Made by a program: the position numbers and the translations under genes. 64,000 nucleotides of DNA from a bacterium (lineage in GTDB: Bacteria > Patescibacteriota > Patescibacteriia > Magasanikbacterales > GWA2-37-8). How positions within the stretch are numbered: position 1 is the first letter of the stretch; the number at the start of each line of letters is the position of its first letter. The stretch is from contig JBDROJ010000023.1 in assembly GCA_043810165.1 (NCBI GenBank), forward strand, positions 4,675-68,674, given 5' to 3'. The notes under the pieces were generated by a model. It ran no database searches. It was given only the letters and a program-made list of their open reading frames with translations, and was not told where the DNA came from. Below, one piece after another: positions 1,385-47,406 of this stretch.

Positions 1385-1393
1385 TGTGGATAA
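1385..1393 (-). other. perfect DnaA box TTATCCACA (reverse complement of tgtggataa)
   Basis: Exact 9-mer. One of five perfect copies in the window. Confidence 0.5.
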
Positions 1394-1728: not shown

Positions 1729-1737
1729 TTATCCACA
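1729..1737 (+). other. perfect DnaA box TTATCCACA, about 25 bp upstream of the -35 of the island A promoter
   Basis: Exact 9-mer. With the 1385-1393 box it forms an inverted pair flanking gene 1469..1654. Confidence 0.5.
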
Positions 1738-3055: not shown

Positions 3056-3925
3056 ATGTCTAAAGGTATTTTCTATCTAATAATAGCCTTGTTCACTTAC
3101 GGTTTTACTCACATTACCGATAAGCTTGGTATTGAAGCTGGGGTTGATCCAGCTGTTTTTACTTTTTTTAGAATATCATTTGCCATGGTATTTGTGGGTA
3201 TTCTCTGGTTCTCGTTAAGAAAGAAGAAGAAATTGCAATTTAAAAAAGCCGACATTAAACAAGTAGCTATTATTGGTATGTTGGCTTCAGGTTTAATGGC
3301 TCTTCTAAGTATACAAGCGCTAGAATATACTACGGCTACCAATAAAGGGATAATGCAAGGGTTGTATACTTCAGCCACTTTAGTAATTGCTTTTCTGTGG
3401 ATCAAAGAAAGATTTTCCAAGTTATTCTACCCAACATTTGCAGTAATGATTTTTGGCTTGATTTTACTTACCAGTAATGGTTTTATGCAATTGCCCAACA
3501 AAGGAGATTGGTTGTTGTTTTTAACTATACCTATGGTTGGTTTCTGCAATGTCTACGCTAAGAAGATAATGTCTGGCTTGCATTCCTTAACTGTTAGTTT
3601 TGGTAGGTTTATCTTTGGCTCACTGTTTTTATTGTTAGCTTTGCCCTTTATTGGTTTAGATAGCATACACACTGTTCAATATGGTATATTATGGGTGATT
3701 TGTTCTGGCGTATTAACTTCGATAAGAGTTGTAAGTTTCTATAAAGGAATTCAAGAAGTAGGACCAGGTTTGGCCGCAACTATTTTGGCTGTTTCACCAG
3801 CTATAACAGCTATTTCAGATCATCTTATTATCGGGACTTCTTTTAGTAGTTTACAGGTAGTTGGTTTAGTTTTAGTGCTGGGTTCTGCTTTTATTGTGGC
3901 GAGATTAAAAGCAAGTTATAAATAG
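3056..3925 (+). CDS. EamA/DMT-family transporter (10-TM drug/metabolite exporter type)
   Basis: 289 aa, about ten hydrophobic helices with duplicated halves, as in the EamA family. Confidence 0.75.
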   Translation: MSKGIFYLIIALFTYGFTHITDKLGIEAGVDPAVFTFFRISFAMVFVGILWFSLRKKKKLQFKKADIKQVAIIGMLASGLMALLSIQALEYTTATNKGIMQGLYTSATLVIAFLWIKERFSKLFYPTFAVMIFGLILLTSNGFMQLPNKGDWLLFLTIPMVGFCNVYAKKIMSGLHSLTVSFGRFIFGSLFLLLALPFIGLDSIHTVQYGILWVICSGVLTSIRVVSFYKGIQEVGPGLAATILAVSPAITAISDHLIIGTSFSSLQVVGLVLVLGSAFIVARLKASYK

Positions 3926-3938
3926 TTATATTTAATAA

Positions 3939-4364
3939 ATGATTCATATGCTAAACCACATAACATTAAGAGTAAGCGACTTTGAAAAAAGTCAGGATTT
4001 TTTTTCAAAAGCACTTGAACCACTTGGTTATAAAATACTCAAAAAAGACAAGGATGAAAATATAGATTATACATCTGTCGGATATGCGGTAATAGACAAA
4101 GAAGGTCATAGAGATTTTTGGGTTAAAAAGGTTAAGGATTACAAAGTTACAACACCTTCATTTTCGTGTTTAGCTTTTACTGCTACCAGCAAAGAAATGG
4201 TTAATGAATTCCATAAAGCGGCTATTGAAGCTGGTGGCAAAGATAACGGCAAACCTGGTTACCGTGTTAAATATCATCCAGGTTATTATGCAGCCTATGT
4301 ATTAGATCCAGATGGATATAATATTGAAGCTGTTTTTGATGATATGAGTATGTTAGATAAATAA
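3939..4364 (+). CDS. VOC-family (glyoxalase/bleomycin-resistance fold) protein
   Basis: Starts with an HITLRVSD-type motif and ends with YYAAYVLDPDGYNIEAV, as in glyoxalase I-like VOC proteins. Confidence 0.7.
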   Translation: MIHMLNHITLRVSDFEKSQDFFSKALEPLGYKILKKDKDENIDYTSVGYAVIDKEGHRDFWVKKVKDYKVTTPSFSCLAFTATSKEMVNEFHKAAIEAGGKDNGKPGYRVKYHPGYYAAYVLDPDGYNIEAVFDDMSMLDK

Positions 4365-16313: not shown

Positions 16314-16322
16314 TGTGGATAA
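16314..16322 (-). other. perfect DnaA box (tgtggataa), with an adjacent near-box tgtggacaa
   Basis: Exact 9-mer in the SpoIID-rpoB intergenic region. Confidence 0.5.
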
Positions 16323-38515: not shown

Positions 38516-39472
38516 CTATTGTACCATATTTTCTTTTCCTAGCAACCACATTATTATGCCTTTTTGCGCGTGCATGCGATTTTCAGCTTGGTCAAAGATT
38601 ACTGAATTGGGATGATGAACAGCACTTTTGGTAATTTCATAACCAATATGACAAGGCATGCAGTGCATTATTTTAGCCTGCGGGGCATATTTTTCAATCA
38701 GTTCAGTGTTCAATTGGTAAGGCATAAATTTTGCTTTTCTTTGTGCAAATTCCGTTTGTTTTTCCGGTCTTACCTGCCCGTCAGCAAAAAATTCCATGTC
38801 CATCCAAGTATCAGTATGTATGTAATCAGCTCCGGTTAGAGCTTCTTCTAGGTCTAAATTTTTAGTGACGAGTCCTGTACTTTCTGCCTGTTGATCTAAT
38901 TCAACATCAATACTTGGTTGATTAATTTCCGGCGCTACTATATGAATTTTGATGCCTAGTTTAGTGCACATTAGTTTTAATGTATTGGATACATTATTTT
39001 CAATACCTAACCAAACAACCTTTTTGATGTTCTCTACGCCATTAGAATTTTCAATCATGGTTAGAAGATCGCTTAAAGCTTGAGCCGGATGATATTTTTC
39101 ACTGCAAGCATCAATTACAGGTATTTGATTTTGCGAAGCCGCTAATTCAACGTCATCTGCCTTCATGGCTCTAAACATTAGTATATGTCCGAAACGCATA
39201 ACCGCTTTGATCTCATCGTCAAAGTCAGTTAGAGAAAACTGCGTAGTTTTTGAATCCACAAAAATGGCGTGTCCTCCCAGCTCGGTCATGCCAGTTTCAA
39301 AAGATAATCTAGTTCTTGTAGAACTTTTTTGGAATAACATTACCATTGTTTGGTTGGGTAGATAATTTGTTAGTTCGCCGGCTGTCCGTTTAGCCTTAAT
39401 CTTTTGGGCTACATCCAAAATTTTCAAGATTTCCTCTTTGCTTTGCTCCTTGAGCGAAATGAGATGTCTCAT
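38516..39472 (-). CDS. argF: ornithine carbamoyltransferase-like transcarbamylase, embedded in the pyr cluster
   Basis: STRTR carbamoyl-phosphate motif and an HCMPCH motif resembling the OTCase HCLP (versus HPLP in ATCase). A separate bona fide pyrB is at 41208..42131. Confidence 0.55.
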   Translation of the reverse strand: MRHLISLKEQSKEEILKILDVAQKIKAKRTAGELTNYLPNQTMVMLFQKSSTRTRLSFETGMTELGGHAIFVDSKTTQFSLTDFDDEIKAVMRFGHILMFRAMKADDVELAASQNQIPVIDACSEKYHPAQALSDLLTMIENSNGVENIKKVVWLGIENNVSNTLKLMCTKLGIKIHIVAPEINQPSIDVELDQQAESTGLVTKNLDLEEALTGADYIHTDTWMDMEFFADGQVRPEKQTEFAQRKAKFMPYQLNTELIEKYAPQAKIMHCMPCHIGYEITKSAVHHPNSVIFDQAENRMHAQKGIIMWLLGKENMVQ

Positions 39473-42149: not shown

Positions 42150-42186
42150 TTTTTTTTAAAAAAATAGCCACTCCTCACGGAGTGGC
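42150..42186 (-). terminator. intrinsic terminator gccactcc-gtga-ggagtggc + U-run, 25 nt upstream of the pyrB start and downstream of argH
   Basis: 8-bp GC-rich stem followed on the minus strand by tatttttttaaaaaaaa. Confidence 0.65.
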
Positions 42187-42192
42187 CGATTG

Positions 42193-42234
42193 CTAATTAA
42201 GATTTTCAATTGTGTATAGGTAGGTATATTTCAT
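42193..42234 (-). CDS. candidate pyr leader mini-ORF MKYTYLYTIENLN (13 aa), essentially leaderless
   Basis: Hand-translated. ATG is ~14 nt downstream of a TATACT -10. Stop codon is 6 nt before the terminator stem. Confidence 0.25.
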   Translation of the reverse strand: MKYTYLYTIENLN

Positions 42235-42248
42235 AGGCTCTGTTACAG

Positions 42249-42277
42249 AGTATAGCAGAGTACCTGGCAGTGGTCAA
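42249..42277 (-). promoter_or_regulatory. sigma70-type promoter TTGACC - 17 nt - TATACT upstream of the pyr leader/pyrB, with a DnaA box at 42287-42295 just upstream
   Basis: -35 is the reverse complement of 42272-42277; -10 of 42249-42254. Confidence 0.5.
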
Positions 42278-42286
42278 ATGTCGACT

Positions 42287-42295
42287 TATCCACAT
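42287..42295 (+). other. perfect DnaA box TTATCCACA
   Basis: Exact 9-mer. Confidence 0.5.
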
Positions 42296-42312: not shown

Positions 42313-43611
42313 TTATTTTAATTTTTGTATTTGATGCTCATAGTGTTCAAGATTTAAATTCCCAGGTGCCCCTAGGCTGATTTTTGTTTTAATATTTTGT
42401 TCCATATTAATATTTGTACTATCTAATTGGTCCATGGCTTGGCAGTAAGCATCTCGAAAAGATAGTTTTTTTTGTATCACCATATCATTGGCAATATCAG
42501 CAGTAAAGATCTCTTTGCTGATAGTTTTTTTGATTTTTTCTTGATTGGGTTTAGTGCCTTGTATAAATAACTGAACTATGAGCAGGCTTTTTTTAATTAT
42601 ATCCACACTTTCTATTAGTGGTTTTTTAATTAATTGCAAATCTCGATGATAGCCCGAGGTGGTATGGGTAACTAGATGTTTAATAGTATTCTGGTGTGAA
42701 ATCATCACACTGATATTGGCTCGCAGTATCTCCATGGCGTCAAGATTTTTCTTTTGTGGCATAATACTAGAACCAGTAGTGAACTGTTCTTCTATAGTAA
42801 AGAAACCAAATTCTTGGCTGGTGAATAAAATCAAATCATTGGCGAATTTACTCAGAGTCATCATAACTTGTAAGAGACCTTCTAAAAATAGGCTTTCAAA
42901 TTTACCTCGACTGTTCTGGCAATACAAGCTATTGATTTGAATATTTTTGAATCCTAATTCAGCTGTGGTCAAATGTCTGTCTATGGGTATGGATGTACCA
43001 AAGCCGGCTGCGCTACCCAAGGGATTTTTATCGATGGCATCAAAAATATCTGTCAGGGTTTTGTGGTCGTCTAATAGGCTTTCTACAAAACTGGCATAGT
43101 AATGTCCCAGACTGCTTAACATGGCCTGTTGGGTATGAGAATAGCCGGGCAGAGGAATATTTTTGTATAGTTTAGCTTTCTTTAGAAACATTTCAGCAGT
43201 TTTTAATACTTCAGCATTGGTATTTTTTATCATGTCTTTCATATATAATCTTAAGGCAACTAATACCTGATCATTTCTACTTCGGCCAGTGTGGATTTTT
43301 TTGCCAACCACTCCTAGTTTGTCAGTTAGGTATTTTTCAATAACCGTATGACAATCTTCGTCAGCCAGAGCAATTACTATCTCATCATTTTTGAATTTTT
43401 GTTCAAGTTCAGTTAAACCAGAACACAACTGTTCCAATTCATTTTTATCTAATATTCCGGCCTGTTCCAGTGCTTTGGCATGAGCTTGGCTAGCTTGAAT
43501 ATCATAGGTCATTAATTCTTTGTCCAATATATGGTCTTGGCCAACCGTGTATTGTTCAACCAATGGGTGAAGTTTGGTTTGGTTTTTTTGCCACAGTTTT
43601 TGTTTGTTCAT
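42313..43611 (-). CDS. argH: argininosuccinate lyase
   Basis: Fumarase/aspartase-family signature GRSRNDQV. Confidence 0.9.
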   Translation of the reverse strand: MNKQKLWQKNQTKLHPLVEQYTVGQDHILDKELMTYDIQASQAHAKALEQAGILDKNELEQLCSGLTELEQKFKNDEIVIALADEDCHTVIEKYLTDKLGVVGKKIHTGRSRNDQVLVALRLYMKDMIKNTNAEVLKTAEMFLKKAKLYKNIPLPGYSHTQQAMLSSLGHYYASFVESLLDDHKTLTDIFDAIDKNPLGSAAGFGTSIPIDRHLTTAELGFKNIQINSLYCQNSRGKFESLFLEGLLQVMMTLSKFANDLILFTSQEFGFFTIEEQFTTGSSIMPQKKNLDAMEILRANISVMISHQNTIKHLVTHTTSGYHRDLQLIKKPLIESVDIIKKSLLIVQLFIQGTKPNQEKIKKTISKEIFTADIANDMVIQKKLSFRDAYCQAMDQLDSTNINMEQNIKTKISLGAPGNLNLEHYEHQIQKLK

Positions 43612-43615
43612 ATAA

Positions 43616-44890
43616 TTAATTTTTTAGTAATTCATTTTCGTAATTATATACATTGTAAGCTGTTTTTTGTGGCAAGTTCCAGATCTCAATGAATCCAGGA
43701 GAAGCATTTTGATTGAATTTAGGATTTTTGTCAAAAGTAGCTAGATCTTTGTCAAACAAAGAGTATGGGGATTCCAGAGCAACCACATCGATATTTCCTT
43801 TATATAATTTTACCTTGACTTTGCCAGTCACTTTTTTGTTATGACTGTTTGAAAAGGCATGTATATGATACATGACTGGGTCATACCATTTGGCACCATA
43901 GGTTAGGTATGCCCATTTGTTATCCAGAAATTCTTTTAATTCGTTTTCTTCTCTAGTAGAAACAATCTGTTCCAATTTTTTATGAGCTGAAATTAAGATA
44001 TTAGCGCCCGGGTTTTCATATACACCCCTGACTTTCAAACCAACTACCCTATCTTCAATTAAGTGTACACAACCAACACCGTGTTGCGCGCCAATATGAT
44101 TGCATTCCAAAATAATTCGACTTAATTTTTTAGCTTGGCCATTAACGGCGATTGGCTTGCCTTGTTCAAATTCAATTTCCACTATTTCTGGTTTATCCGG
44201 AGCATTTTCTGGTGTGTTACACCATTGCAATATATTTTCAACAGGTGGAATTAATTTTGGATCTTCGATTTCTCCGCCTTCGGCTGTATTGCTCCACATG
44301 TTTTCATCATAAGAATATGGAGTCTGCTTTTTTTGTTTTATTTCTATCCCATGTTTTTCTGCGTAAGCAATTTCTTCTTCTCTGCCCATGCCCCATTCCC
44401 TTACCGGTGCAATAATTTTTAAATTTGGGTCCAGAGTAGTCATATATCCTTCAAACCTAACTTGGTCATTGCCTTTGCCAGTACAACCATGAGCGATTAC
44501 TTTAATGCCGTGCTGTTGGGCAATTTTAACAGCGGTTTTTGAAATTATCACCCTCCCCAGAGGACAACCCAAAGCATAACCTCCTTGGTAATCAGCATTG
44601 GCCTTGATGGCTTCTGACAATATTATATCGGCAAATTCATCTTTAGCATCATAAACGATTGCGTCGCTAGCACCTAAATCCAGGGCTTTTTGCTTAATTT
44701 CTTCTAAATTATCTGCAGTTTGCCCGATATCTATAGTCAAAGTAACTACTTTGCTGTTGTATTCTTCTTGTATCCATTTAAGCATGACCGAAGTGTCTAA
44801 TCCTCCGGAATAGAGTAATAGGCATTGATCAAAATCTCCTTTTTCAGCTTCATACGAAGCTACTTTTTTGTATTTTGTTTGATTGTCCAT
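43616..44890 (-). CDS. argG: argininosuccinate synthase
   Basis: PP-loop ATP-binding motif YSGGLDTS. Confidence 0.9.
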   Translation of the reverse strand: MDNQTKYKKVASYEAEKGDFDQCLLLYSGGLDTSVMLKWIQEEYNSKVVTLTIDIGQTADNLEEIKQKALDLGASDAIVYDAKDEFADIILSEAIKANADYQGGYALGCPLGRVIISKTAVKIAQQHGIKVIAHGCTGKGNDQVRFEGYMTTLDPNLKIIAPVREWGMGREEEIAYAEKHGIEIKQKKQTPYSYDENMWSNTAEGGEIEDPKLIPPVENILQWCNTPENAPDKPEIVEIEFEQGKPIAVNGQAKKLSRIILECNHIGAQHGVGCVHLIEDRVVGLKVRGVYENPGANILISAHKKLEQIVSTREENELKEFLDNKWAYLTYGAKWYDPVMYHIHAFSNSHNKKVTGKVKVKLYKGNIDVVALESPYSLFDKDLATFDKNPKFNQNASPGFIEIWNLPQKTAYNVYNYENELLKN

Positions 44891-44913
44891 ACATTTGTTG
44901 CTTGTGTTAATTA

Positions 44914-44947
44914 AATAATTAAAAAACTTCTGGGAGCTCCAGAAGTA
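44914..44947 (-). terminator. intrinsic terminator cttctgg-agctc-ccagaag + U-run, ~25 nt upstream of the argG start codon
   Basis: Minus strand reads acttctggagctcccagaagttttttaatt. Confidence 0.6.
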
Positions 44948-44974
44948 AATGTGGTAGTATTGACTAGTTAAAGG

Positions 44975-45043
44975 TCAACGCAAACAACCACGCTTCCGAA
45001 GCGCGTGTTTACGACGACGATTTTGTTTAGTCTTGATAATCAT
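44975..45043 (-). CDS. candidate Arg-rich leader peptide MIIKTKQNRRRKHALRKRGCLR (22 aa), nearly leaderless
   Basis: Hand-translated. Five Arg codons (CGT x4, CGG). A hairpin gcgcttc-g-gaagcgt overlaps the Arg codons. A putative TTGACA - 18 nt - TATGGT promoter lies at 45053-45082. Confidence 0.3.
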   Translation of the reverse strand: MIIKTKQNRRRKHALRKRGCLR

Positions 45044-45087
45044 ACTAGGTCTACCATATCTCATTTCTTAAGAACTTGTCAAATAGG

Positions 45088-45096
45088 TTATCCACA
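45088..45096 (+). other. perfect DnaA box TTATCCACA abutting the gatB stop codon, just upstream of the -35 of the putative arg promoter
   Basis: Exact 9-mer. Confidence 0.5.
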
Positions 45097-46653
45097 CTAG
45101 TTTAATTTTTCTTTTAATAATTTTTCTACTACTTTGGGATCAGCACTGCCTTCAGTGGCTTTCATGGCCATGCCAATTAAGAATTTAATGACCGGTTCTT
45201 TGCCTGATCGGTATTCTTTTACTTGTTTGGGGTAGTTTTTAATAACATCATCAATTATATATCCAATTTTACCCTCGTCACTAACTTGTCCATAGCCTTT
45301 TTCTTCCATAATATGAGTTGGATCTTTATCAGTTTTAGCTTCTATCATTTCATTTAATATTTTTAAAGCATTAGTGGAATTTACTCGCTTTGCATAGACC
45401 AAGGCTATGAGCTCCGCAAAATTTTCCGGCTTGGTTTTTAAATCAGTTATATTAATTTTTTTATCACTCATAGTGCCCATGAGTTTGCTAGTAAGCCAAC
45501 CGCCGGCCAAGCGCGCTAATTCAGTATGTATATTTAATTGATCAATAACACCCTGACCGCCTGTTTTTGTTTCAGGCAAATTTTCTATCCAGTCTGCTAA
45601 TTCGCTCATTACATTTTCAGTATAGCTAGCCCAATGCTTGTCAGCTGCAAGAAGTTCGGCGTCAGAAGGCTTGAGGCCGAATTCTTCACAAAAACGGCCT
45701 CGTTTTTGATGGGGGAGTTCGGGAATGGAAATTTTTCCGGCAATTTTTTTCGGTTCAAAAGGAGGAATATCAGGTTCTGGAAAATATCGATAGTCAGCCG
45801 ATGTCTCTTTACTGCGTTGCCAGTATGTTTGTTGTTTGCCATCATCCCAGCCTCGGGTTTGTTGTTCCCATTTTTCTCCGTTGGCTATCAATTTGGTTTG
45901 CCTATCAATTTCATGGTCTATTGCCTTGGAGATGAAGCGGAAAGAATTGATGTTTTTTAATTCTACCTTAGAATTGAGTTCGTATCCTTTTTTCCCAATA
46001 ATGGCCCCATCCTTTTTTTCTGTTTTTCCGGCTTCTTGCACCGATATATTGGCTTCACAGCGCATGTGGCCTTTTTCCATATCAGCATCGCTTATGCCCA
46101 GGTGGCGGAAAATTAATTGTAATTCTTGACAGTATTTTTTGGCTTCAGTTGCATTTTGAATGTCTGGCTCGGAGACAATTTCTACCAAAGGTATTCCAGA
46201 ACGATTGAAGTCAACAAGAGAATCAGTTTTACTGCCATGTGTAAGTTTGGCTGTGTCTTCTTCTAGGTGTACCCTGGTGATGCCGATTTTAGCTGTGTCA
46301 CGGCTATTTTCACCAGTAGGAAAGGCTAGTTCAATAAAGCCATGTTTGCCTATTGGCTGGTCGTATTGAGAAATTTGGTATCCTTTGGGCAAATCAGGAT
46401 AAAAATAATTTTTGCGGTCAAATTTGCTTTGATCAGCTATATTACAGTTAAGGGCCTTGGCAATTTTTACGGCCCATTCAATTGCTTTTTTGTTAGGTAC
46501 AGGCAAAGTGCCTGGATGTCCCAGGCATATTTCGCAAATATTAGTGTTTGGCTTTTGTTCATCAGGATGGTTTTTGCAACTACAAAACATTTTACTGTTT
46601 GTCTTCAATTCAACGTGAATTTCCATGCCGATTATTGGAACGTATTTTGGCAT
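45097..46653 (-). CDS. gatB: Asp-tRNA(Asn)/Glu-tRNA(Gln) amidotransferase subunit B
   Basis: MPKYVPIIGMEIHVELKT... N-terminus and the GatB/YqeY C-terminal domain. Confidence 0.92.
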   Translation of the reverse strand: MPKYVPIIGMEIHVELKTNSKMFCSCKNHPDEQKPNTNICEICLGHPGTLPVPNKKAIEWAVKIAKALNCNIADQSKFDRKNYFYPDLPKGYQISQYDQPIGKHGFIELAFPTGENSRDTAKIGITRVHLEEDTAKLTHGSKTDSLVDFNRSGIPLVEIVSEPDIQNATEAKKYCQELQLIFRHLGISDADMEKGHMRCEANISVQEAGKTEKKDGAIIGKKGYELNSKVELKNINSFRFISKAIDHEIDRQTKLIANGEKWEQQTRGWDDGKQQTYWQRSKETSADYRYFPEPDIPPFEPKKIAGKISIPELPHQKRGRFCEEFGLKPSDAELLAADKHWASYTENVMSELADWIENLPETKTGGQGVIDQLNIHTELARLAGGWLTSKLMGTMSDKKINITDLKTKPENFAELIALVYAKRVNSTNALKILNEMIEAKTDKDPTHIMEEKGYGQVSDEGKIGYIIDDVIKNYPKQVKEYRSGKEPVIKFLIGMAMKATEGSADPKVVEKLLKEKLN

Positions 46654-46656
46654 AAA

Positions 46657-47406
46657 CTATTTTTTAATTGGCGTGGTACTTATAGGATTATTTTTTGCCT
46701 GGACATATAAGATAACCAGAGAAATCATGATTAAAGGCGCGGCAAATGTATTAACAATTGAATTAATGATTATGCTGGCAATTAATTGCCAAGTCTGACT
46801 GCTTATTAGCGCCGATACAATAGTATTGAATATACTATCAGATATAATGATTATCAATCCAAACAGGATCAAAGGCAATATTAATCTTAATACTATTGGC
46901 CACCATCTACCCACAACTAGGTTCTTGCTGAAAGACAGCGATTCTATGACTTTTTTTTCATCAAGTACCACAGCATAAAATACAAATATAAACCAGATCA
47001 TGAATATTACGCCCGGAATTATGAAAAGAATATATCCCCCTATCATAATTAGGATCACTAGTATGGTAATCAAGATGGCCGGCCAAATTAGATGCCAAGA
47101 TGAGGTAAACATCTGTTTGCAGTCGCCTGGATTTTGATTCTCATAACAAGCTTTAATGGTCTTGGCCAAAGCTATCTTAACCCAGATACTATATATGGAA
47201 CTGGCCAAAAATACTATAAAAATAACAATGCTGATAAAAGGCAGGTATGCTTCAGCGTAAGCATATATGAATAAAAGCCCCACAGCCAGCGCGATTAAGA
47301 CAAAAGCTGGGATTAGAAGGAAAAGAATATAAGGCAGTATTTTCTTGAAATTTTTTTGATACAACTCTAAACTTTGCTTAATAAGCTCTATTGGTCCAAT
47401 TAGCAT
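46657..47406 (-). CDS. integral membrane protein (about 6 TM), hypothetical
   Basis: Hydrophobic helices throughout; no catalytic motif seen. Confidence 0.5.
   Translation of the reverse strand: MLIGPIELIKQSLELYQKNFKKILPYILFLLIPAFVLIALAVGLLFIYAYAEAYLPFISIVIFIVFLASSIYSIWVKIALAKTIKACYENQNPGDCKQMFTSSWHLIWPAILITILVILIMIGGYILFIIPGVIFMIWFIFVFYAVVLDEKKVIESLSFSKNLVVGRWWPIVLRLILPLILFGLIIIISDSIFNTIVSALISSQTWQLIASIIINSIVNTFAAPLIMISLVILYVQAKNNPISTTPIKK

Follow-up and report, generated by a model that had tools for sequence, protein, structure and literature searches.

What decides whether RNA polymerase reads into argG and argH at a locus where a promoter, a short arginine-rich open reading frame (ORF) and an intrinsic terminator are packed between gatB and the argG start codon? 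The locus lies in a stretch of 64,000 nt (the window, whose coordinates are used throughout) from GenBank assembly GCA_043810165.1, contig JBDROJ010000023.1, assigned to the Magasanikbacterales within the Patescibacteriota. A first-pass annotation had read the gatB-argG interval as a candidate arginine attenuator. The promoter, DnaA-box-like site, ORF, hairpins and terminator that it listed are all present on the minus strand, within 1-2 nt of where it placed them (Table 1). Our analysis makes it likely that this leader of ~125 nt is a ribosome-mediated attenuator, which would sense the charging of tRNA-Arg and thereby control how far transcription continues into argG-argH. It matches the classical ribosome-mediated attenuators on every point that sequence alone can test.

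The leader ORF is predicted to encode the peptide MIIKTKQNRRRKHALRKRGCLR, in which six of the 22 residues are Arg (R9-11, R16, R18 and R22; five had been counted before), four are Lys and one is His. Arg accounts for 3.55% of the codons in the window, which gives a probability of about 4.5e-5 for RRR at any one position. The string CGTCGTCGT is unique in the 64-kb window with both strands counted. CGT (23%) and AGA (27%) are the two common Arg codons there. Classical attenuator leaders are 14-30 codons long, carry tandem codons for the end product from about codon 9-10, and fold through four regions (1-4), with those codons in region 1. Like trpL, hisL, leuL, thrL, pheL and ilvL/ivbL, the window leader is a promoter-proximal ORF with tandem codons for the product of the pathway that follows it.

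The RNA can adopt competing structures. The free leader (45046-44915) folds into a 1:2 helix of ~20 bp plus the terminator at -35.9 kcal/mol (z -3.4), and none of 200 shuffled sequences folded as well. In this minimum free energy (MFE) structure the 5' arm of the 1:2 helix holds most of the Arg run. The gcgcttc/gaagcgt hairpin described in the first-pass annotation does exist, but it is just the tip of this much longer helix. We then simulated a stalled ribosome by placing a 29-nt footprint on an Arg codon and cutting the RNA before the 3' arm of the terminator. With the footprint on any of the Arg codons, the fold changed to an antiterminator, with 88% of the terminator 5' arm paired upstream. 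The antiterminator has three tiers (GCUUCGGAAG/CUUCUGGAGC, GUGGU/ACCAC and GUUGAC/GUCAAU), and its segment alone folds at -24.0 kcal/mol (z -3.77). It takes up seven of the eight nucleotides of the terminator 5' arm and part of the loop. A weak hairpin at 44958-44979 had been noticed earlier; it is present, but as the tip of the antiterminator, which had been overlooked. In RNA form the terminator reads ACUUCUGG-AGCUC-CCAGAAGU, a GC-containing stem of 8 bp followed by U5, and it ends 30 nt before the argG ATG. As in classical attenuators, the 1:2, 2:3 and 3:4 pairings are mutually exclusive and the terminator stands just before the first structural gene.

The first-pass annotation had named conservation of the ORF, especially of its Arg run, and of alternative pairings in related genomes as the check on its proposal. 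An exact look-up of the window ArgG returned no record, so relatives were reached via homologues; the nearest are in Patescibacteria metagenome-assembled genomes (MAGs). We collected 167 argG loci, which gave 134 non-redundant upstream regions. A fold-based script searched these for an ORF with at least two consecutive Arg codons, followed after 10-130 nt by a hairpin with a T-run and then argG; it superseded an earlier, strict terminator finder that had missed many loci. The script picked 43 of the 134 regions, and seven doubtful ones were removed by eye (L006, in fact a T-box locus, L039, L144, L152, L060, L105 and L011), leaving 36. Those seven were chosen from their peptides before any scoring; their antiterminator z-scores, computed after removal, are near 0. 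The figure of 36 is a lower bound, since the script misses loci whose U-runs are broken by G or whose Arg runs are not continuous (L004, L005, L017, L019, L034 and L100, all seen by eye).

At least 36 of the 134 upstream regions thus have the same order of promoter, ORF of 15-32 codons with 2-5 consecutive Arg codons, antiterminator, terminator and argG. Those of the 36 that carry a label are deposited as Magasanik-, Peregrini-/Peri-, Gracili- and Saccharibacteria, Moranbacteria and "Patescibacteria group", the sole exception being L001, deposited as an uncultured gammaproteobacterium. None of the approximately 70 Balneolaceae, Bacteroidota and Calditrichia loci is in the set, despite an ArgG identity of 67-75%. 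One Candidatus Magasanikbacteria contig (L083) is fully syntenic with the window, with thyA-folA-tmk-membrane protein-gatB, a 220-nt spacer, and argG-argH-pyrB-pyrI-pyrC. Protein identity between the two is 33-84%, yet they have CAAAATCGTCGTCGT, the -35 hexamer and the terminator in common. In the three closest loci (L081, L083 and L085), TGTGGATAA is followed after 5-8 nt by TTGAC(A/G), a -10 hexamer, a short Arg ORF and a GC hairpin with a T-run. The homologous ORFs are MNITINKQNRRRKYTLRKLRCL in L081 and MNYQNYTQNRRRTRAFWKML in L083; both contain the codons CAA AAT CGT CGT CGT, and L085 has CAA GCT CGT CGT. TTGACA is invariant in alignment A2. The gene upstream is gatB in L083, an aminotransferase gene in L081 and recO in L085, and in 9 of 32 loci it is divergent, so the module accompanies argG irrespective of its upstream neighbor.

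Outside the closest relatives, conservation is architectural rather than at the sequence level. A blastn search with the intergenic region against 80 genome loci found similarity only at the start of the argG coding sequence, and peptides of different subfamilies show no conservation beyond the Arg run. The Arg run itself stands out: of the 57 closest (CPR-type, for Candidate Phyla Radiation) upstream regions, 23 have RRR in a short ORF on the sense strand, and 9 have the next most frequent triple, LLL. The runs mix CGT, CGC, CGG, CGA, AGA and AGG (for example, CGT CGT AGA; CGC AGA CGC; and AGA CGT CGG CGG AGG). Because synonymous codons of both boxes are used, conservation is at the level of the amino acid or tRNA and not of a nucleotide string. 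The run is in frame 8-11 codons past the ATG in 31 of the 36 loci, which bears out the conservation that had been asked for, and this is the same ATG-to-run distance as in the trp, his and leu leaders. All of the listed loci have a terminator.

Placement of the start codon relative to the promoter is also shared. In the window the ATG lies 9 nt past the -10 hexamer, leaving no possible Shine-Dalgarno sequence, and from the predicted transcription start the mRNA would be leaderless or nearly so, with a 5' untranslated region of at most ~3 nt. A promoter matching at least 9 of 12 consensus positions precedes the ORF in 30 of the 36 loci, and in 24 of those 30 the ATG is 5-12 nt past the -10. The near-leaderless start proposed in the first-pass annotation is therefore predicted for the relatives as well, and the spacing in both window and relatives fits leaderless initiation. 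Shine-Dalgarno sequences are present at other genes of the window (aggag, for instance, precedes the ORF downstream of 1729), so this type of start is particular to the arg leader.

Comparison of loci also gives evidence for alternative pairing. Across the family, a segment ~12-23 nt past the Arg run is complementary to the 5' arm of that locus's own terminator. In 32 of 35 loci the duplex is more stable than 95% or more of the shuffled sequences (mean z -3.25). Pairing with the locus's own terminator gave -11.8 kcal/mol vs. -6.9 kcal/mol when terminators were swapped between loci, with 34 distinct arms represented (permutation p < 1e-4). The alternative pairings sought in related genomes are thus there. 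In subfamily A1 (12 sequences), pairing in the antiterminator reaches 97% and includes three compensatory pairs, compared with 49-65% pairing for slid controls, and 0 of 500 shuffles reach its score; the terminator and the 1:2 helix are each 83% paired. These three helices were scored separately, as the RNAalifold consensus of A1 fused them into one long-range 1-2:3-4 pairing. The geometry is uniform. Counted from the run, the median limits of region 2 are +12.5 and +23 nt, and the median position of the stop codon is +28. In 32 of the 36 loci, a ribosome terminating at the stop would overlap region 2; one stalled on the first Arg codons would leave it free.

A different device occupies the same position in sister lineages. 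Four loci (L003, L006, L097 and L106) have a T-box-like leader before argG, with GAA-CGC-G and GGUGGUACCGCG visible by eye, and no leader ORF; for L003, L097 and L106 the T-box was recognised by eye only. In L006 (3655-3938), the Rfam T-box model gives 72 bits (E 7e-16) with the Arg specifier CGC, and L045 (3550-3813) has a T-box with specifier CGA (E 2e-15). In L045 the two devices stand in tandem: over ~3550-3975, the T-box and its terminator are followed, after 16 nt, by the ORF MFKSILQLRRRRRKYQKFR with five Arg codons, its own antiterminator and terminator, and argG. The scores in L006 and L045 (71-72 bits) are under the Rfam gathering score of 93, so standard annotation misses both. At the gathering score we found no T-box in 20 loci, and a permissive E-value search was required. 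It thus appears that argG in this clade is under tRNA-Arg-dependent termination control by two different devices. An Arg-specifier T-box in this position in sister lineages suggests that selection has acted on the sensing of tRNA-Arg charging. Like an Arg T-box (RF00230), the window leader is 5' of argG, has a terminator vs. antiterminator output and has tRNA-Arg charging as its proposed signal. Unlike the window leader, a T-box binds uncharged tRNA directly, through its specifier codon and T-box sequence, and needs no translation.

Together, the conserved frame and Arg run, the complementarity of each leader to its own terminator, the association of the module with argG and its exchange for Arg T-boxes support the first-pass reading of an arginine attenuator, from which we infer the following function. 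Transcription would start from the TTGACA/TATGGT promoter at the AUG or a few nucleotides before it, and a 70S ribosome would initiate on the near-leaderless 5' end. When Arg-tRNA is scarce, the ribosome should stall with one of the CGU codons (45019-45011) in its A site, covering region 1. Region 2 would then be free to form the 2:3 antiterminator (-24 kcal/mol), locking up the 5' arm of the terminator and letting polymerase enter argGH. When Arg-tRNA is plentiful, the ribosome would pass through region 2 to the UGA. With region 2 either occupied or re-paired with region 1, and so unavailable, the 3:4 terminator would form and transcription would stop at the U-run, 30 nt before argG. An untranslated RNA, as from gatB read-through (in which the AUG is internal, with no Shine-Dalgarno sequence before it), would fold into 1:2 plus the terminator, which would end the gatB operon too.

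Leader-peptide attenuation is known for Trp, His, Leu, Thr, Phe and Ile/Val, and for Cys in actinobacteria. Arginine operons are usually controlled by ArgR repressors and, in Firmicutes, by T-boxes. In fungi, the arginine attenuator peptide (AAP; the Neurospora crassa arg-2 and yeast CPA1 upstream ORF) is a nascent chain that, together with free arginine, stalls the ribosome at the stop codon of that ORF. The sequence of the AAP matters rather than Arg codons, high Arg causes the stall, and the control is eukaryotic and translational. The AAP and the window leader share a short upstream ORF and arginine-dependent control of an arginine-pathway gene (proposed for the window leader), but they are opposite in logic and polarity and are not homologous. 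The window leader differs from classical attenuators in its amino acid, its want of a Shine-Dalgarno sequence, its AUG at or near the predicted 5' end and its Patescibacteria/CPR host.

T-boxes are the only RNA-level control given for arginine genes in PMC1262725, and there in Firmicutes; according to PMC2965389, leader peptides were then known only in Proteobacteria, Actinobacteria and, newly, Firmicutes. Our full-text literature search, which did not cover subscription journals, found no arginine leader peptide or attenuator upstream of argG and no leader peptide in Patescibacteria. One preprint (bioRxiv 10.1101/834739) describes leaderless polycysteine short ORFs in mycobacteria that attenuate operonic expression. 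As described there, they resemble the window leader in being leaderless, at the 5' end of an operon and rich in consecutive codons for the amino acid made downstream. They differ from it in coding for Cys, in their actinobacterial host and in not necessarily having an intrinsic terminator, whereas the window leader has a canonical terminator/antiterminator. Searching window positions 44500-45500 against Rfam at E ≤ 10 gave no T-box or amino-acid leader, just chance-level hits to two unrelated eukaryotic families; at the gathering score, the whole window yielded three tRNAs only. On balance, we think that these loci represent an undescribed Patescibacteria/CPR family and the first Arg leader-peptide attenuators from bacteria, leaderless so that only transcripts from their own promoter are read, and exchanged with, and once stacked behind, Arg T-boxes. 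The amino-acid specificity, the phylum and the habitually leaderless start would be what is new here.

Several observations weigh against the attenuator model or restrict it. Full-length equilibrium folds lose the terminator only with the ribosome at the second Arg codon, and the model therefore depends on co-transcriptional kinetics, as for trp. The AUG has no Shine-Dalgarno sequence, so translation of the leader would depend on leaderless initiation, the efficiency of which is uncertain with a transcription start 2-3 nt upstream of the AUG. Some of the runs in the family are merely RR, and a few of the loci picked by the script are probably chance matches; taxon labels of MAGs are given as deposited and are partly unreliable. 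Neither is the 1:2 helix universal, with at least 50% of the Arg run paired in 10 of the 36 loci, and the terminator is in the free-RNA MFE structure of just 17 of the 36. Many members may be two-state devices, and some probably depend on the translating ribosome alone to break 2:3.

Could the parts of this leader serve something simpler? The hairpin might be a plain gatB terminator, with an unregulated argG promoter and an incidental Arg ORF. gatB does end 15 nt before the -35 hexamer with no other terminator after it, the free RNA folds into the terminator form, and the hairpin probably does stop gatB read-through. However, the terminator is downstream of a conserved promoter, not upstream of it, and the module accompanies argG behind unrelated and even divergent genes. 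The Arg run and frame are conserved and the antiterminator co-varies with the terminator, all of which leaves this explanation highly improbable. We find it scarcely credible that the ORF encodes a small basic protein with a function of its own (in binding ribosomes or nucleic acids, for example), with the RNA structures of secondary importance. The peptide does have a strongly basic composition, and leader peptides that act in trans are known (peTrpL, PMC7298713). Against this, it has no family match, only the Arg run is common to peptides of 15-32 residues, the sequence after the run tracks the RNA pairing, and the ORF is invariably found between promoter and terminator before argG.

Arginine specificity is a separate matter, since alternative structures by themselves leave the signal unidentified. 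The attenuator could respond to translation capacity or coupling (cf. E. coli pyrBI), to stalling by a poly-basic nascent chain or to an RNA-binding protein, and the pyrB leader in the same window has a short ORF and a terminator with no obvious regulatory codons. This is unlikely: the downstream genes make arginine, Arg is the sole consistently repeated residue, Arg-specifier T-boxes are found at the same place in sister lineages, and no single-stranded protein-binding motif is conserved across subfamilies. Control might instead be exerted mainly at the promoter, by a protein bound to TGTGGATAA (DnaA or another) or by an ArgR-type repressor, with the leader minor. The box is a perfect DnaA-box consensus and probably a protein-binding site. 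It is kept 4-8 nt upstream of the arg-leader -35 in L081, L083, L085, L007 and L029, all Magasanikbacteria-type loci, and only in loci of that type. With up to one mismatch it is over-represented in the window (33 matches vs. 20.4 ± 4.7 expected), and its five exact copies are all intergenic, in both orientations and upstream of promoter-like sites: 1385-1393(+), 1729-1737(-), 16314-16322(+), 42286-42294(-) and 45088-45096(-). Nevertheless, since it is missing from most other Arg-leader lineages and present at non-arg promoters (pyrB and upstream of 16760), it cannot carry the Arg signal. No ARG box (TNTGAATWWWWATTCANW) with up to three mismatches was found in 43408-46824, which includes the leader with its promoter (44891-45110). 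Promoter control in place of attenuation is thus very unlikely, and it could in any case act on top of attenuation, so that the two do not truly compete. The DnaA-box-like site may add a second input, common to the arg and pyrB leaders, in the Magasanikbacteria branch.

Table 1. Features of the arg leader, its flanking genes and the pyrB leader, in window coordinates.
Feature	Position	Strand	Description and basis
gatB	45097-46653	minus	TAG stop 45099-45097; 206 nt before argG start
DnaA-box-consensus site TGTGGATAA	45096-45088	minus	Ends 5 nt upstream of -35; identical to consensus
Putative sigma70-type promoter	45082-45053	minus	TTGACA 45082-45077, 18-nt spacer, TATGGT 45058-45053; 10/12 in promoter scan
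Leader ORF, 22 codons + TGA, MIIKTKQNRRRKHALRKRGCLR	45043-44975	minus	TGA 44977-44975; from translation
Regulatory codons CGT CGT CGT (Arg9-Arg11)	45019-45011	minus	From sequence
Region 1 (5' arm of 1:2 hairpin)	45018-44999	minus	Covers most of the Arg run plus the 12 nt that follow; free-leader MFE, 3' arm 44995-44974
Local hairpin CGCGCTTCGGAAGCGTG	45005-44989	minus	Sequence scan
Region 2	45002-44974	minus	Partner of region 1 (via 44995-44974) or of region 3, with pieces GCUUCGGAAG 45002-44993, GUGGU 44991-44987 and GUUGAC 44979-44974; inside leader ORF save its last nucleotide; from folds
Small hairpin TTGAC...GTCAA	44978-44960	minus	From sequence
Region 3	44964-44936	minus	Antiterminator partner of region 2; ACCAC 44955-44951; CUUCUGGAGC 44945-44936, which is terminator 5' arm plus part of terminator loop
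Region 2 segment GCTTCGGAAG and pairing counterpart CTTCTGGAGC			Antiterminator halves
Intrinsic terminator ACTTCTGG-AGCTC-CCAGAAGT	44946-44926 (stem), + T5 to 44921	minus	-10.4 kcal/mol; scan and folding
argG, argininosuccinate synthase, 424 aa	43616-44890	minus	NF001770, 501 bits; first regulated gene
argH, argininosuccinate lyase, 432 aa	42313-43611	minus	4 nt after argG
pyrB leader promoter	TGTGGATAA 42294-42286; TTGACC 42277-42272	minus	17-nt spacer, TATACT
pyrB leader 13-codon ORF MKYTYLYTIENLN	42234-42193	minus
pyrB leader terminator GGCCACTCC-GTGA-GGAGTGGCT + T-run	42187-42158	minus	Starts 5 nt past ORF stop

Other readings of the leader ORF were tried and rejected. A 29-aa version from the in-frame ATG at 45064 would begin inside the promoter spacer; relatives have no such extension and align with the 45043 start. 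A likeness of the peptide to ribosomal protein L34 was not borne out by any Pfam match; indeed, Pfam gave no match for the leader peptide of the window nor for the family peptides. TGA could not be taken as a sense codon (code 25), given that TGA ends 9 of the 55 long ORFs in the window, which therefore uses the standard code, that ArgG homologues align from residue 1, and that the terminator intervenes. The leader TGA is in frame with the argG ATG, with no other stop in the intervening 153 nt (44888-45043). This is of no consequence under the standard code but is noteworthy for code-25 (UGA=Gly) Gracilibacteria relatives; the leaders of three of these (L017, L032 and L034) stop at TAA.

argG and argH are presumably in one transcript. 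argG has no recognisable Shine-Dalgarno sequence, and an A/U-rich stretch of ~30 nt follows the terminator (44891-44920 in the window; likewise in L081 and L083). The ArgG proteins of CPR genomes are 67-79% identical to those of Balneolaceae, Melioribacteraceae and Calditrichia (loci L010, L011, L015 and L038-L080). This cross-phylum identity is much above that of neighboring genes even among CPR genomes, which suggests that argG was horizontally transferred. No Arg leader accompanies argG in the non-CPR loci.

A leader-like module also lies between argH and pyrB on the minus strand (42158-42294), and it is reminiscent of the E. coli pyrBI leader. The pyrB leader of L083 (7574-7745) has its box inverted, and its ORF, MTHYILKSKQTTIIKTESHSH, extends into the terminator loop. 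The pyrB-pyrI-pyrC-...-pyrD-pyrK-pyrE-pyrF cluster of the window includes an ornithine carbamoyltransferase-like gene (38516-39472, minus strand), which scored just under the NCBIfam cut-offs (285 vs. 306 bits). With this gene encoded, the cell is probably able to convert ornithine to arginine, and its position in the pyr cluster places one arginine-pathway step under the pyr leader and not the arg leader. Elsewhere in the window, positions 1143-2363 (~1.2 kb) have no ORF of at least 90 codons, two TGTGGATAA boxes and a perfect 14-bp GC-rich hairpin at ~1405-1439 (GTTCGGGCCCCCGG...CCGGGGGCCCGAAC). There was no credible Rfam match in this interval, which may hold an unannotated RNA gene or serve in replication or regulation.

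CPR hosts are largely uncultured and have small genomes with few known regulators, and an element of this kind implies that arginine is tuned rather than merely scavenged. If the model is true, these presumed regulatory minimalists would couple transcription tightly to translation and actively regulate the synthesis of arginine. An Arg-codon attenuator would fill a gap among the known leader-peptide specificities. The occurrence of a leader peptide, a T-box or both in tandem before the same gene is a natural experiment on sensor swapping. Annotators gain a class of real ORFs of 15-30 codons, mostly leaderless, that gene callers miss, and the compact (~125 nt), putatively Arg-responsive switch is a potential biosensor.

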